Part shown: positions 35,601 to 41,600 of the stretch, in pieces
Layout: each line of letters starts with the position of its first letter
How positions within the stretch are numbered: position 1 is the first letter of the stretch
Origin: Bdellovibrionales bacterium
Lineage (GTDB): Bacteria; Bdellovibrionota; Bdellovibrionia; Bdellovibrionales; JAUICD01
Direction: 5' to 3'
DNA: 64,000 bases
Assembly: GCA_965203275.1 (NCBI GenBank)
Contig: OZ241865.1
Span: 2,464,001-2,528,000 of the forward strand
Program-made: the position numbers

Positions 35601-38600
35601 AAATTCAGTTTTTCTTTTATCAGGCAAAAGCATAATCTTGTTTGTATCCCTATCAAGGTTAGAAGCTCTTTGCAGTGCAGAAGTAAATTTTGTAGAATTT
35701 TCTACCTCAAAAGCATATTTAATGATGCGATCCTTTATCCAAAGCATATCAATCATTTTAATCCTTGCCTTTTTGTGTTGATCTAAAATGCCTAATTTAT
35801 CTAACTTTAATATATTAACATATTTTGATAATTTTTTACCCTTATAAACCTCTGATTGCTCTCTTTGACCAATATAAATTTGATAACCTATTTTTTGACC
35901 AATCTTTGATAAAAAATAAAGCATCTGGGTATGATCTGTAAAGTCTTTTTCTATATCTCCTCCTTTATAAATCCATCGGCCGTTAGATTTATTAGAAAAC
36001 TTTTTTAAAATCTGATCGACTGATTGAATATCAGGTATAAGTCCATTGGGATATTTAACAAATATTTCAGCAAGTGCTTGATCCAATGTGATAGATACCT
36101 TTTTCCTCAAAAGAGCAATAATTGTATCTTCAACCCTGTCGGTAAGCTTCTTATCAGGGCATCTAATGTGTTGAGAAGGATCCTTAAACCACCAGTGTTT
36201 GCCAGCCTTGCTGTCATGATCTTGAACTTCAAAAATTGTTCCAATATGAGTAGACAAAATTTGTTCTATATTTTTATCAAAATTTTCAATATCAAATCCT
36301 CTAGATGAAATTTCTGCTAAAAGACCATTAAATAATATTTGATAAGGGGTTGGTTCATTTCTTTGAGCTATCAAATTGATAGTTTCTTCAAGAATATAAT
36401 GCTTGAATTCTTGCTGATCTGTTTTAAAGGTTATATCAGGCTTCTTGATGCAACGAATATAGAAATCAGACGCTGAAGTGCCATAAGGATTAGCTACATT
36501 TGATTCACCTGTTCTTTTATTTTGTTGATGAATGACCTTTTCTATTTTAAAACCAGAAAGCTTAATTGCTTTTAAAAAAGCATTCCATATTTTTATATCT
36601 TTGTTATGAAAGGTAAATACAATTTTGCCATCGTCTTTTAAGATTTTAAAAAGATTTTTTATACCATTTTGAAATTTTACTTTATATATTTTTAAATCTT
36701 GAATGCCTTTTTTTATAGTAATTTCACTCTCATAGTTGGGAGAAAACCGCAAGTCTATTTTTTTTAACCATGTAAGCCATACTGTGCTTAAATCTAAATA
36801 CTGGACAAGCCCTCCATAAGGAGGGTCTGTCATAATAAAGTCAATAGAATTTTCTGGAATAAAATCAATGATAGTATTTATATCTACAACTCCATATTTA
36901 ATATCAAAATTTGTAGATCTATTACTTTTATTGCTTTTATCAACATATAAAATCTTTGGAATCTTTCCTAGATACTCTTTGATATTTATCAATGAACTTT
37001 CAACTGATTGTTTGCCAAAACAACTCTTATAAAAAACCAATAAAGGATTCATTTCCATTTGCCTTTCAGCACATATAAAGGCAGATCTTCCCCAGCTTGT
37101 AGAAAAGCCTCTTTTGGCTTTTGACCTCCTAGGAACACACATTTTAGTACATAAATGAATACTTTTAATAAATCCTAAGAGAAGCTGCTTTTGTATAGTT
37201 ACATTTTGCACACGAAGTATCTTGTCAAAAATACTTGAGATCACATAGAGGTTTCTTTGAGTCCATAAATGAGCAAAGCTATTGCCACCTATACGGTTTA
37301 TAAAATTTGCTGAGAAGGAAGGATAGTTATAAAATGTATCTTGAGGATACCATGTTTTGATTTTTATTTTATGCATAGATTGAGATTTAGCGATTTCTTC
37401 TTTGGTTGGTTGTTCAAGAAAGCGATCTTTTTTGTTTTTACAACATTTGAAACATTCAATACCCACTTCATATAATTGATGATCTTTCCATTTAAAATTT
37501 TGAATCACTGCTGATGGGCTATGGCACTTTCTGCATTTTGTATAAAAATACTCTTGATAAACCTTGTCGTCTTGAATGGCTGTCATGATTTGATGGACTT
37601 CTTTTTCAAAGGTTTCTTTTTCGAATGGACTACAAAATGCTTCTATCAAAAATGAAGTCAGAGGATTAAGGTCAAAGGCTATGGCTTTTCTCCCTGCTTT
37701 CACAGCTTCAAAGGCACTGATAGCACTACCAGCAAAGGGGTCTAAATAGCTCCCACCTTCCAGAGTATAATTTTGAATATACTCTCGCCAGATATTATGA
37801 GGTTTTTTACCCCAATATTTCACAGCTTTATAAATAGGTGGACGAACTCCTTCTACCAATGCAAAATTAATGTCTTTCATTATTGTATCCCTTATGTTGA
37901 GAGTTTCTGCTCAACATCCCTATTGACTTATAGGTACTACATAAAAGCAGTACAATCAAGGTTGACTTTTAAAGCTTTGATACTTTTTTCACTCAAAATG
38001 AACTGGCCTCTGGCCACTTTTGGGTAGCCAGCCCGACGGCTCACGCCGTCGTAAAAGGCTGGCTACCTCAAAAGCTTGTTCATTTTGAGTAGAGGAGGAT
38101 CTTTTTACTCCTCTACACCATGTTAGGGAAAAAGTGCTTTTATTACCTTAAGAGCAAGCGGGTCTGCGGAAGATCTCCAGCCTGCCTCCGCCTCCCACTC
38201 ATAATATTCTTCATTTTTTTGAAAGTTACGCAGAATCTAAAAAAAATAAAAAAAACAAAAAGAAACAGTGAAATAAACCCTTAACATGGTATAAAGAAAT
38301 AAAAGGATCCTTTTTCTGGGATCCGGCATCCGGGATCCGGCAAACCGGCAACAGAAGGAACTGTTTCCTTAACATGTACTTAAGAGACGAAGAGATCCTT
38401 CCCTACTAAAAGTAAACGGATTTTTGAGGCAATCAGCCTTTGATCGACGGCGATAGCCGTCGGGCTGATTGCCCAAAAACAGCCAGAGGCTGGTTTACTT
38501 TTAGTGAACCAAAAGGAACTTTTTCCTTAACATGTACTTAAGAGACGAAGAGATCCTTCCCTACTAAAAGTAAACGGACTTTTGAGACATTGCTCTTTTT

Positions 38601-41600
38601 GGACAGCGATAGCTGTCAGAGCAATGTCCAAAAGCAACCAGAGGTTGGTTTACTTTTAGTGAAACAAACCCTTAACATGGTATAAAGAAATAAAAGGATC
38701 CTTTTTCTGGGATCCGGCATCCGGGATCCGGCAAACCGGCAACAGAAGGAACTGTTTCCTTAACATGTAGTTAAGAGACGAGGAGATCCTTCCTACTAAA
38801 AGTAAACGGATTTTTGAGGCAATCAGCCTTTGATCGACGGCGATAGCCGTCGGGCTGATTGCCCAAAAACAGCCAGAGGCTGGTTTACTTTTAGTGAACC
38901 AAAAGGAACTTTTTCCTTAACATGTAGTTAAGAGACGAGGAGATTCTTCCTACTAAAAGTAAACGGATTTTTGAGGCAATCAGCCTTTGATCGACGGCGA
39001 TAGCCGTCGGGCTGATTGCCCAAAAACAGCCAGAGGTTGGTTTACTTTTAGTGAACCAAAAGGAACTTTTTCCTTAACATGTACTTAAGAGACGAAGAGA
39101 TCCTTCCTACTAAAAGTAAACGGATTTTTGAGGCAATCAGCCTTTGATCGACGGCGATAGCCGTCGGGCTGATTGCCCAAAAACAGCCAGAGGCTGGTTT
39201 ACTTTTAGTGAACCAAAAGGAACTGTTTCCTTAACATGATGTAAAGAGAGGAGAGGATCCTTCCCTACTAAAAGTAAACGGACTTTTGAGGTAGCCAGCC
39301 TTTGATCGACGGCGGTAGCCGTCGGGCTGGCTACCCAAAAGTGACCAGAGGTCAGTTTACTTTTAGTGAATTTAAAGAGCGTCAGTGCTGGAATTGGTAG
39401 ACAGGCTAGGTTGAGGGCCTAGTGGAGCTTGCTCCGTGGTGGTTCAAGTCCACTCTGACGCACCATATTGTAAAGTGTGCCATCTTCTTATTTTTAGTTA
39501 TAGTTGCAAGTTACAGCTACAAAGGATGCTGACTATCTCTAAACAATCTAAACAAATAGATCATCTGGATTCACATAATCTTTATTTAGAGTTTTAGCAA
39601 CAGGCTTATAGGTGATATGTCCTCCATACGTATTGAGTCCTTTTTTCAGACAAGGGTTCTTTTTCATAGCAGACTCGACACCTCCGCAAGCTATCAAAGA
39701 CATATAACCAGAGGTTGCATGAGATAAAGCATAAGTAGAAGTGCGAGGGGTTATGCCAGGAATATTAGGAACACAATAATGAATCACACCGCCTAAAATA
39801 TATGTGGGATTTTCATGAGTTGTTGGACGACACGTTTCAATGCACCCTCCTTGGTCCACTGCAACGTCTATCACCACAGAGCCATCTTCCATCTGATCAA
39901 TCATCTGGCGAGTGACTAAGCAGGGTGCCTTATAACCTGTGATCAAAACAGCACCTATTAACAAATCCGAAGCTATAACACTATCGAAAATATTTTTTTC
40001 ATTGGAATATAAAGTTGTAATTTGTCCCTTATAAAGGTGTTCTAAAAACTCAAGCCTTTTGTGATCAACATCTAAAACAGTGACAGAGGCACCTAATCCC
40101 ACAGCAACAGAAAGAGCATTGATTCCTACAACCCCTCCACCAATCACAGTGACCCGTCCGGGAGCTACTCCAGTAACACCACCTAACAAAATACCTTTAC
40201 CCCCACTATTTTTTTGTAGCAAGTAGGTCCCTATTTGTACAGACAAACGACCTGCTACCTCACTCATAGGGACTAACAAAGGTAGAGAAGCATTTTGATC
40301 TTCAATAGTTTCAAAGGCAATAGACTTGACTTTCTTCTGACAGAGTACTTTTGTCAATTGTGGTTCAGCTGCCAAATGTAAATAACAATATAAAATTTGA
40401 TTTTCTTTTAATAAGTCATATTCTTCAGGAAGAGGTTCTTTCACTTTGACAATCATATCTGATTGATGATAGACCATCTGTTTATTTTCAAGGACGCTAG
40501 CACCACTTTTTTGATAAACTTCGTCGGAGATGCCACTACCTATACCTGCATTTTTCTCAATGAAAACCTGATGTCCTCCACTGACAAGCTGTTGAACACC
40601 AGACTCTGTGATGCCTACCCGACTTTCACCTGTTTTAATTTCTTTAGGTACCCCTACTATCATCATTAAACCTTTCTTAGATTGGAAAGAAATACTTAGT
40701 TGGAAAGAAATATTTTTTTGTGGTATATCATTCTTTCATTCATAAACAAATAAAAAAGATTGTTATTTTTTAAAAAAATCATAAAATAAATACTACTGGC
40801 ATCTTATTTAATCAAGTCTAATCGAAATATTTTATATTATTTTATCATATATTTTGACAACCATAGATAAAAAGGAAGTGTAAATACCTTGAAGAATCAT
40901 AATAATAGCAAAAACATGGAACTCAGTTGGATCATCGGAGCAGGGATTGTAGGTGCTGATATTGGCACTTCGGTTTTCTATAGTACAGGCTTGCTCTTTA
41001 GTTACGTGGGTTATCTCTCGCCTTTTTTTATTCTTTTAATTTGTTTAATGATGTGGGCTTTTAAAAAAACTTACGAAGAGGGTCTAGCCCTTAGCCCCTA
41101 TAATGGAGGTGCTTATGTGATGATTTTAAGAGGTATCGGTAGGAGGTCCGGTGTTTTAGCAGGAGGACTGACGATCTTGTCTTATTTAGCAACAGCTACA
41201 GTCAGTAGTCTCTCAGGTGCTTTTTATATCTCTTCCTTAATGGAAGAGAATGTGTCTTTAGACACTATTGTAATGATCTCTGCTATTCCTATTATTTTAT
41301 TTGGTTTATTAAATTCAAAGGGCATTAAAGAACCTGCTAAATTGATCACCGCTATTTCAGGATTGCATTTTGGTTTTTTAATTTTATTGGTGATCTGTGG
41401 AACAGGTTTTATCCTTTTTAATTGGCAAGAAGTAGACTTTGCTAAAATGAGAAAAATTACTGTAGATTCTCAATTGACCTTAGCTATGGTGATGCATGGA
41501 TTTGCAGGAGCTTTTTTAGGTATTACAGGTTTTGAATCAGCAGCACAGATCATAGAAGAACTCAAAGCTCCTATCCTCACAACTCTTCGTAAACTTTATA

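Follow-up and report, generated by a model that had tools for sequence, protein, structure and literature searches.

The 157-bp unit that recurs throughout the genome of this uncultured Bdellovibrionales bacterium (G000) is a real repeat, and it is probably (we would put it at about 0.6) a non-coding, non-autonomous selfish element of the REP/REPIN/MITE type, restricted to one genus, whose adjacency to the Rpn (YhgA-like) nuclease genes is a by-product. A single repeat family occupies 6.6% of a 2.57-Mb genome and has no recognisable transposase partner.

A first nhmmer profile, built from six copies in the window (the whole 64-kb stretch of DNA that was analysed), gave 1,369 matches in G000, and a second round gave 2,021, a figure that includes opposite-strand matches of the element's palindromic part. 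The second-round footprint was 170,621 bp, or 6.64% of 2,567,810 bp, with 732 copies at 90% of the length or more (380 on the plus and 352 on the minus strand). Removal of overlaps left 1,369 matches, 741 of them full-length and 628 truncated. The family of about 155 nt and about 1,500 copies, amounting to 6.6% of the genome, that an earlier note had described is borne out by these counts. Its reported share of 28% of intergenic DNA was likewise recovered: on crude ORF calls, which served as gene calls for G000, the element constitutes 28.6% of non-ORF DNA, and 3.1% of element bases fall within ORFs, some copies sitting within genes.

In the window, six copies run head-to-tail at 38352-39374, where TRF detects a period of 157 (4.0 copies, 93% matches, 38746-39370), in keeping with the tandem runs of 157-bp period claimed before, together with a 390-bp higher-order repeat at 38267-39060. 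All six lie on the plus strand: copy 1, comprising 5' module and Y-shaped hairpin, at 38352..38513 (nhmmer model positions 4-165, E 7.8e-49; alignment and fold), copy 2 at 38511..38668 (5-165, E 1.8e-42), which carries a differing inner-stem allele with complementarity retained, copy 3 at 38743..38903 (4-165, E 3.1e-49), copy 4 at 38901..39059 (5-164, E 1.6e-48), copy 5 at 39058..39216 (5-164, E 4e-48) and copy 6, with another stem allele, at 39215..39374 (5-164, E 1e-47). Directly before copy 1 stands a variant 5' module (38267..38351, plus strand) with a CCTTAACATGG-type box, GGATCC and GGGATCC-like heptamers ending in GGCAACAG; it recurs at 38658-38742 as part of the 390-bp repeat and is the common 5' flank of element copies that have no neighbour. 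The centre of the repeat region (38144..38266, unstranded) contains the conserved inverted-pair spacer, the right half of family X, a second hairpin repeat, and a stretch rich in A, as read from the sequence, from the identical spacer within 94 (-,+) pairs and from empty copies of family X. By the polarity rule given below, the full-length minus-strand copy at 37984..38143 (model positions 4-164, E 1.2e-42) forms the left arm of a centre-out arrangement. The 3' end of this copy faces a methylase-like gene ending at 37880. Beyond the array, a co-oriented tRNA-Leu(GAG) gene (39379..39465, plus strand; ARAGORN, Rfam tRNA 47.9 bits) follows after a gap of 4 nt.

Each unit consists of a 5' module of about 50 nt followed by a Y-shaped hairpin of about 105 nt, in which a 14-bp outer stem carries a long inner stem, interrupted by a single bulged A and capped by a GNNA tip, and a side hairpin with an AGA loop. 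RNAalifold predicted 41 pairs from 33 window copies, 24 of which had changed on both sides. Across the 688 distinct sequences among 740 full copies in G000, each of the 40 hairpin pairs whose consensus is Watson-Crick is formed in 91-100% of cases and occurs as 2-4 pair types, and the earlier view that the copies keep one branched hairpin through compensatory changes holds. At these same pairs G.T exceeds A.C (308 vs 164), and the fold is thus strand-specific. No Rfam family matches the element, neither at gathering score nor at E<=1, as had been stated earlier; with the Rfam 15 covariance models, only tRNA reached gathering score, and at E<=1 nothing beyond tRNA-Leu and a miRNA match attributable to chance (E 0.42) appeared. 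The strictly kept loops, bulge and pairing could indicate a cellular function instead of selfishness.

The orientation of the copies follows a rule. Pairs of neighbouring copies in G000 are ++ in 420 cases, -- in 398, -+ in 130 and +- in 28, and regions with at least two copies have first and last orientations of (-,+) in 107 cases vs (+,-) in 5; the sister species G001 shows the same bias (-+ 6 vs +- 1). A common conserved spacer of 27-45 nt lies within the 94 (-,+) doublets that have full 5' ends, and intergenic copies diverge from this spacer-bearing centre with their 3' ends (GTGAAACAAA) toward the flanking genes. In divergent regions the 3' end is toward the nearest gene in 125 of 190 copies, and in convergent regions 100 of 156 copies are opposite to the nearest gene, which once more turns the 3' end to that gene. 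Transcription of the adjoining genes does not account for how the elements are oriented. The nearest upstream copy is co-oriented with its gene 185 times vs 77, and no replichore bias of element orientation was found in G000.

Comparison of filled and empty paralogous sites, together with near-identical copies in unrelated flanks, supports the earlier proposal of a non-autonomous mobile hairpin of the REP/MITE kind. In the two clean empty-site cases, the G000 blocks 1827539-1827692 and 1199146-1199299, a 157-bp insertion stands against an uninterrupted paralog site and target duplication is absent. Among the other filled/empty comparisons several insertions replace 7-12 bp and in one case a direct repeat of 10-11 bp is present; the PDDEXK_2 genes show an insertion of about 200 bp relative to the full-length paralog. 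A twin at 99% identity or more exists for 211 of 740 full copies, more than 10 kb away for 137 of these; of 93 such near-identical distant pairs, 36 have no 40-nt flank in common, 25 have both and 32 have one. The unit reaches new sites independently of its flanks, and its copies accumulate head-to-tail and recombine into mosaics; on the preferred reading, a trans-acting factor would recognise the folded plus strand as single-stranded DNA.

The term mobile rests on this comparison of sites, because a mobilising enzyme was not found. Searches of G000 for Y1, IS110, RT and TnpB candidates gave none: PF01797 (Y1_Tnp) had 0 matches, and the sole PF07282 match was a 32-residue stretch inside a 1,365-aa ORF. 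The 20 largest G000 paralog families contained no transposase family besides IS256-like and IS4-like ones. A MITE carrying the terminal inverted repeats of a resident full-length IS was rejected, as the ends of the IS256-like (1,400 bp) and IS4-like elements are unrelated to those of the repeat.

Typically, REP and REPIN elements are imperfect palindromes of 20-40 nt with a GTAG or CGTC head, arranged as inverted doublets with a short spacer, and the RAYT gene (Y1_Tnp, PF01797) is single-copy and repeat-flanked. The 157-bp element is likewise intergenic, palindromic, non-autonomous and present in hundreds of copies, keeps its pairing by paired changes and forms inverted doublets with a short spacer. 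It differs in its length, its three-way junction and the lack of a conserved GTAG/CGTC-type terminal tetranucleotide, and its doublet arms are only 69% identical vs 74% for random pairs. The known REP/REPIN system with RAYT (TnpA-REP) Y1 transposases (PMC3337134, PMC3733652) was rejected on the RAYT side, since G000 has no Y1 gene and the single Y1 gene of G001 (PF01797 match at 1839505-1839864) lies about 1.8 kb from the nearest element and is not flanked by copies. With its three-way-junction fold and strict centre-out polarity, the element offers a good system for REP-like spread without RAYT.

Neisseria Correia elements and Rickettsia palindromic elements are foldable, high-copy repeats of 100-155 bp with no known transposase, found sometimes in genes; those of Neisseria end in inverted repeats of 26 bp and duplicate a TA. 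The 157-bp element is similar in size, copy number, folding, lack of a known transposase and occasional intragenic copies; unlike Correia elements, its two cleanest insertions lack a duplication, its arrays are polar and head-to-tail, and it makes up 6.6% of the genome. The IS200/IS605 family and its palindrome-associated miniature derivatives use one-strand hairpins and insert in an orientation-specific manner with no target duplication, traits which the element shares, the last of them in its two clean insertions; it differs in that no fixed short target is seen beside one element end and replichore bias is absent. IS200/IS605-type transposition was rejected, as G000 lacks TnpA (Y1) and TnpB.

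The thirty Rpn/YhgA-like genes counted previously were recovered as 16 PF04754 (Transposase_31) and 14 PF12784 (PDDEXK_2) genes, all above the curated cut-off; one representative scored 43.8 bits with TIGR01784, under its cut-off of 52.1. In G000 their adjacency to the element is genuine and tight and is not explained by the region, which agrees with the claim that they are flanked far oftener than other genes. Of the 30 genes, 73% have an element within 300 bp to the left, 77% to the right and 57% on both sides vs 17%, 17% and 4% of 1,799 other ORFs; in all, 28/30 Rpn genes are element-adjacent vs 30% of other genes. The element makes up 44% of the adjacent 150 bp for Rpn genes and 8% for all genes, and past 1 kb the value is back at 6-7%. 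No enrichment is seen for the IS controls (IS256-like 2/9, IS4-like 2/7), and resolvase genes have 0% element in the adjacent 150 bp. The adjacency is nevertheless common to other families: a non-enzymatic four-helix-bundle family of 15 copies is flanked in 15/15 cases, with 41% element in the adjacent 150 bp, and a pilin-like family shows it as well. Copies flanking Rpn genes lie 1 to 740 bp away in both orientations, some genes being one-sided, and stereotyped ends, as in an autonomous copy, were not found around the 30 genes. That shared Rpn DNA starts at an element end proved true for the Transposase_31 groups, whose paralog homology begins at the element 3' end; over all Rpn-family ORFs, the upstream homology limit falls at or in a same-orientation element in 23/57. 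Elements also disrupt Rpn genes in both G000 and G001.

Related genomes do not reproduce the association. The element model matches 3 of 61 genomes, and the element is seen only in one Bdellovibrionales genus; the contig concerned in G004 is probably mis-binned, because over 7.3 kb it matches G001 at 90% identity while G004 orthologs are 66-70% identical. In G001, where the element takes up about 2% of the genome vs 6.6% in G000, it lies within 300 bp of 5/24 Rpn genes vs 46/272 background genes, taken at even spacing from 400 kb of the 2.94-Mb genome and scored with a profile of G000 copies, and in three of the five flanked Rpn genes it interrupts or abuts the ORF. As an earlier caveat had stated, a related genome (G003) with 16 Transposase_31 genes gave no match to the element model, either genome-wide or in 101,069 bp of Rpn loci (0 matches). 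Rpn genes and element hence fail to co-occur consistently, G003 having the former alone, G001 both without enrichment and G002 neither. The striking adjacency of one genome vanishes in its sister species, which is a caution and leaves standing the published view of Rpn as toxin-antitoxin defence.

We infer that Rpn is not the element's transposase and that its adjacency in G000 arose as a by-product. Small cassettes of a selfish or defence kind, namely Rpn L/S and four-helix-bundle genes, would sit at element junctions inside arrays and would be dispersed jointly with the repeats, recombination at these being the likeliest route (hitch-hiking). Excerpts of published work describe RpnL/RpnS nucleases as tandem arrays without defined ends, with up to 26 paralogs in some genomes (PMC5350276, PMC10400941), and make the case for Rpn proteins as defence nucleases of the toxin-antitoxin type, 'highly unlikely' to act as transposases (PMC10400941). 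The G000 genes resemble these in matching PF04754/PF12784, in their many paralogs, whose C-terminal region holds a varying number of 12-nt (four-residue) repeats, and in an RBS-like GGAGG and ATG upstream of the C-terminal part; they differ in being dispersed and embedded in repeat arrays. A literature search for Rpn tied to a small palindromic repeat found no published link.

It is unlikely, though the best placed of the alternatives, that such cassettes integrate or recombine preferentially at the motif of the element's 3' end, in which case the association would reflect cassette targeting and not element mobilisation, resembling REP-targeting IS elements, of which ISPpu9 is a known example (PMC12288879). 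Four Transposase_31 subfamilies start directly after GTGAAACAA-type ends beside different element alleles, the paralog at G000 1913171 retains a TGAAACAAA motif without an adjacent element, four-helix-bundle cassettes occupy a fixed junction after the heptamer module, and tandem partial 3' ends are common; yet no recombinase is tied to the junctions, the resolvase genes do not lie near elements, Rpn units do not stop at any set point of the element on their downstream side, and enrichment is absent from G001.

Somewhat less probable still is the earlier suggestion, unsupported here, that Rpn nucleases move or target the element, in the form that these PD-(D/E)xK enzymes cut at or near the folded element and that RecA-independent, microhomology-primed repair copying spreads element and rpn cassettes. 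The local adjacency in G000 with its density profile, the unenriched IS controls, the homology starting at element 3' ends and the lack of a Y1, IS110, RT or TnpB candidate speak for it, as do duplication-free insertions with small target losses, which fit break repair, purifying selection on Rpn (median dN/dS 0.15, 18 pairs; 19/30 at least 300 aa long) and, in an excerpt of PMC5350276, the primer-usable 3'-OH ends left by RpnA and its raising of RecA-independent recombination. Against it stand the unenriched G001, the element-free Rpn genes of G003, the unstereotyped flanks, the four-helix-bundle and pilin-like families, the disrupted Rpn genes and the lack of defined ends or duplications of rpn genes, along with their defence role, in the passages of PMC10400941. 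We hold it improbable in particular that Rpn nucleases recognise and cut the Y-shaped hairpin or an extruded cruciform, and that RecA-independent primer-extension repair then copies elements and rpn cassettes with no target duplication. If true, the hairpin would be the Rpn family's first natural DNA substrate, and this would be a case of nuclease-driven repeat spread without a transposase; a role of Rpn-made breaks in seeding such spread can be tested.

Retention of the unit as a functional structured RNA or DNA, kept for transcript processing or stability, insulation or promoter supply, is improbable too: it would accommodate the conserved tip, AGA loop, bulged A and paired stem changes, the G.T excess on one strand, the co-oriented upstream copies and the tRNA gene 4 nt past an array, but array polarity and not gene direction sets orientation, G.T pairs number only 308 over 40 pairs and 688 distinct copies, a small number of stem alleles, reshuffled among copies by recombination, account for the covariation, and the truncated and intragenic copies, the smaller share in the sister species and the absent Rfam match all argue against it.

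The window itself has no intact Rpn gene and three C-terminal Rpn-family fragments, all on the minus strand. A 223-aa ORF at 62890..63561 (blastn 93.8% to the Transposase_31 paralog at G000 367734; blastp cluster) is without the nuclease domain, Pfam giving a weak Yae1_N match alone, and lies between element copies 62720-62878 and 63500-63650. The second, of 99 aa at 20625..20924 (blastp cluster; weak HTH and Yae1_N Pfam matches only), adjoins element copies, and the third, of 77 aa at 26483..26716 (blastp cluster), adjoins the copy at 26751-26908.

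The 157-bp repeat that folds into a Y-shaped hairpin, an abundant repeat of the genome under study (G000, a single contig of 2,567,810 bp with 35.1% G+C, in which the window is C1:2464001-2528000), is best read as a genus-specific, REPIN/MITE-like selfish repeat. A first profile built from six window copies gave 1,369 matches. A second profile round gave 2,021 matches, opposite-strand matches of the palindromic part counted in, and in this round the element covers 170,621 bp (6.64% of the genome) with 732 copies at 90% of full length or more (380 plus, 352 minus). Once overlaps are taken out, this leaves 1,369 matches, divided into 741 full, 232 5'-truncated, 325 3'-truncated and 71 both-end truncated copies. 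With genes taken as greedy longest-ORF calls, on which the gene and non-gene shares rest, ORFs contain 3.1% of the element bases and 28.6% of non-ORF DNA is element; these figures agree with those of the earlier note. No orientation bias by replichore was detected among the copies of this genome. Matches occur in three of the 61 genomes of the order, namely G000, its sister species G001 and the related G004. A contig scan for a degenerate module-A pattern gave at least one locus, in G001. The last was rejected as an independent host: its element-bearing contig (L042, G004:C11:30000-42000) shares 90% identity with G001 across 7.3 kb, whereas the rest of the G004 genes match this genus at 66-70%, and by these identities the contig is probably a mis-binned piece of a relative in genus g1. 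The restriction to one genus is an addition of the present analysis.

Each unit consists of a 5' module of about 50 nt, containing a small hairpin-like box (TTAACA..TGTTAA) and GGATCC, followed by a Y-shaped hairpin of about 105 nt with a 14-bp outer stem, a long inner stem bearing one bulged A and a GNNA tip, and a side hairpin, NNNCC-AGA-GGNNN, that completes the junction. The fold is conserved among the copies. RNAalifold on 33 window copies gave 41 pairs, with both sides changed in 24, and each of the 40 hairpin pairs whose consensus is Watson-Crick is formed in 91-100% of the 688 distinct sequences among 740 full copies, in 2-4 pair types. Stem variation amounts to a few alleles that recur in mosaic combinations; independent compensatory events are therefore far fewer than the cell counts. 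G.T, although rare, outnumbers A.C in pairs with a Watson-Crick consensus (308 vs 164), hence the plus strand is the strand whose fold matters. No Rfam family matches the element. Upstream of many neighbourless copies lie GGGATCC-type heptamers ending in GGCA.CAG. Tandem GGGATCC/ATCCGGG heptamers in up to 13 copies (window 33589-33685, 51389-51413 and 38310-38345) form a separate module, often ahead of the element, and with the element's own GGATCC they give the BamHI-type palindrome a very high frequency; the window has DNA-methylase-like ORFs at 34576-37880.

Six copies stand head-to-tail at window 38352-39374 with a 157-bp unit. TRF reports 4.0 copies of period 157 at 38746-39370 (93% matches) and, at 38267-39060, a higher-order repeat of 390 bp. 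A tRNA-Leu(GAG) gene (39379-39465) starts 4 nt beyond the array end; on the left are a minus-strand copy (37984-38143), the conserved spacer and one half of another hairpin repeat. The ORFs around the array encode two DNA-methylase-like proteins, an alanine dehydrogenase and an amino-acid permease. This second abundant repeat, family X, has at least 46 copies (window 38144-38235; G000 454631-454879 and 1051317-1051529, for example) and folds with an outer stem GAGGATGGGGCAGTG.../...CACTGCCCCATCCTC and an inner hairpin GAGCTTGC/GCAAGCTC, one loop arm being replaced by the 157-bp element in several copies. Elsewhere in the window, a 109-bp unit repeated 1.9 times at 12097-12305 opens with sequence resembling the 5' portion of a tRNA gene, but ARAGORN detects none at this place; the units may represent tRNA copies that have been truncated. 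At 48167-50018 a 204-bp unit is tandemly repeated 8.9 times, and at 8011-8406 lie repeats of 99 bp of the kind seen in ankyrin units; the ankyrin family numbers 103 ORFs across the genome.

The arrays follow a polarity rule, a feature absent from the earlier finding. Neighbouring copies are ++ in 420 cases, -- in 398, -+ in 130 and +- in 28, and the first and last copies of regions with at least two copies are (-,+) in 107 against (+,-) in five, so that the element 3' ends (GTGAAACAAA) point outward to the flanking genes. Also newly described here is a conserved spacer of 27-45 nt at the centre of 94 inverted (-,+) pairs; the arms of such doublets are 69% alike, as against 74% for random pairs. 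The sister species shows the same polarity (-+ 6 vs +- 1). Co-orientation with the downstream gene (185 vs 77) is a consequence of array polarity. The 3' end is aimed at the nearest gene in 125 of 190 copies in divergent regions, and 100 of 156 copies in convergent regions run opposite to the nearest gene, so that the 3' end is again toward it; this orientation in both region types argues against a role tied to transcription of the neighbours.

Mobility was assessed by comparison of paralogous sequences of G000 interrupted in one member and uninterrupted in the other, and these paralogous empty sites are likewise new. In a clean case at 1827539-1827692, 157 bp are inserted where the paralog is uninterrupted, with no duplication, and a second clean case (1199146-1199299) is likewise free of duplication. 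At several further filled sites 7-12 bp of the target have given way to the element, as in the loop arm of the second repeat family. An insertion of about 200 bp, comprising heptamer module and element, is seen within Rpn/YhgA-like nuclease genes of the PDDEXK_2 kind relative to a full-length paralog; it has a 10-11-bp direct repeat on its flanks and is closely followed by an RBS-like GGAGG with an ATG. The genes divided by repeat insertion (892492-893654, 907566-908806, 2024930-2026218 and 1707132-1708363) consist of an N-terminal ORF of 224 aa, with the C-terminal part as an ORF of its own. Twins at least 99% identical exist for 211 of 740 full copies, 137 of these twins lying more than 10 kb distant. 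The 40-nt flanks of 93 distant twin pairs are common on neither side in 36, on both in 25 and on one in 32; pairs without common flanks imply independent copying of the element to new sites. Spread is increased by local duplication: of 57 abutting full-copy pairs, 23% reach 95% identity or more, as against 0.6% of random pairs; that share was too small for tandem duplication to be the main growth mode, which was rejected. Among 55 split pairs considered as nested self-insertions, the inner copies all have the same orientation and are indistinguishable from products of unequal recombination. Reverse transcription, as judged by a 5'-truncation bias, was dismissed because 3'-truncated matches exceed 5'-truncated ones and RVT_1 is missing from G000.

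No known transposase partner of the element was found. Y1_Tnp and IS110-type DEDD domains, like RVT_1, were not found in G000, and TnpB was discarded as a candidate, the sole PF07282 match being a short Zn-ribbon stretch inside a 1,365-aa ORF. The element ends are unrelated to those of the IS256-like and IS4-like elements; of seven IS256-like copies whose ends are defined (1,400 bp, with duplications of 8-9 bp), one sits in the tip of an element (432252-433487). The sister species has one Y1 gene, with the nearest element copy about 1.8 kb off. Among known kinds, those nearest to it are REP/REPIN with RAYT, Correia elements, Rickettsia palindromic elements and miniature derivatives of IS200/IS605, and the family does not pass the defining tests of any of them. 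An integron attC reading was dropped, with no search made for an integrase, the copies lying in 393 regions on both strands without a conserved core site.

The earlier note proposed that Rpn nucleases move or target the element, and a direct test of this proposal, also added here, had a negative outcome. G000 carries 16 Rpn genes of PF04754 (Transposase_31) and 14 of PF12784 (PDDEXK_2), and a blastp cluster with fragments included holds 57 Rpn-family ORFs. Of the 30 Rpn genes, 28 have an element no more than 300 bp away vs 30% of 1,799 other ORFs, and 57% vs 4% have one on both sides within that distance; where the gaps on both sides measure 300 bp or more, all 11 Rpn genes have a flanking element vs 62.5% of 259 others. 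The 150 bp adjoining Rpn genes are 44% element, as against 8% for all genes, and the density returns to the genome average of 6-7% beyond 1 kb, so that a regional permissive island was rejected as the cause. True mobile elements have no such adjacency (IS256-like 2/9, IS4-like 2/7), and for resolvase genes 0% of the adjoining 150 bp is element. The claim that the shared DNA of Rpn paralogs starts at an element end holds for the Transposase_31 groups, in which homology begins right after the element 3' end and ceases about 10 bp past the stop codon, the adjoining elements being of different stem alleles; across the family the upstream homology limit is at or in a same-orientation element in 23 of 57 ORFs. 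With a median dN/dS of 0.15 (18 pairs) and 19 of 30 at least 300 aa long, the Rpn genes of G000 are not in decay. The paralogs vary in their count of 12-nt repeats: three Transposase_31 paralogs about 93% identical (367734-368924, 1039298-1040491 and 1135829-1137040) differ in such repeats, of four residues, near the C terminus, and four-residue repeat variation is published for RpnS (PMC10400941).

The adjacency is common to other families, the element copies flanking Rpn genes are fixed in neither distance nor orientation, and relatives show no link; for these reasons the enzyme-substrate reading was not adopted. The four-helix-bundle family (PF05635/TIGR02436) is flanked by the element in 15 of 15 members and lies among the repeats just as closely as the Rpn genes do, each 101-aa copy (1905607-1905912 and 472364-472669, for example) standing between heptamer module and element with a fixed junction after the module. 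A pilin-like family, with a prepilin-type methylation motif at the N terminus and one of its ORFs at 1476740-1477561, has an element within 300 bp in 25 of 35 members. A paralog family of 74 ORFs, one of them at 1059332-1060501, with a median length of 132 aa and a maximum of 389 aa, shows no association with the element (10/74) and has no Pfam and no meaningful NCBIfam match; NCBIfam likewise gave nothing meaningful for nine paralog families without a Pfam match. The sister species is 1.95% element in an evenly spaced sample of 400 kb out of 2.94 Mb, and a copy lies within 300 bp of five of 24 Rpn genes vs 46 of 272 ORFs of that sample, three of the five being copies that interrupt or abut the ORF; in both species some Rpn genes are broken by elements, the sites differing between the two. 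The related genome G003 has 16 Transposase_31 genes, whose paralogs share a 130-165-bp leader free of any hairpin repeat; the model is unmatched genome-wide and no element was found in 101,069 bp around its Rpn genes. By published accounts, rpn genes encode toxin-antitoxin anti-phage nucleases and have no defined ends and no duplications (PMC10400941), and an Rpn nuclease is non-specific and raises RecA-independent recombination (PMC5350276). The literature searched held no link of Rpn, Transposase_31 or PDDEXK_2 to a small palindromic repeat, the sole co-mention (PMC2779907) being unrelated. Breaks made by Rpn could still drive the spread, as insertions that cost a little target sequence are consistent with break repair, the adjacency in G000 is extreme and G000 holds no other candidate enzyme; we consider this reading improbable.

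Under the preferred reading as a selfish repeat, a factor would recognise the folded plus strand, presumably as single strand, and the element would spread through precise insertions that leave the target unduplicated, and also through local duplication and recombination. Cassettes of rpn and of the four-helix-bundle gene, which sit within arrays in G000, would be dispersed along with them, and we infer that they hitch-hike by recombination at the repeats.

In four sequencing runs the contigs break at the repeats, the joints being cross-matches between copies, and neither a clean empty site nor an array-length variant was readable in them. This organism or close relatives of it are present, as short-read contigs, in runs from at least three studies. 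Contigs of runs X7-X10, which carry a sponge metagenome label, hold 19-27% of the sampled words of window 34400-43000; in X7 and X8 unique genes are 95-99% alike and repeat depth is about 100-fold above that of unique bins. Near relatives with many element copies occur in this sponge-metagenome material.
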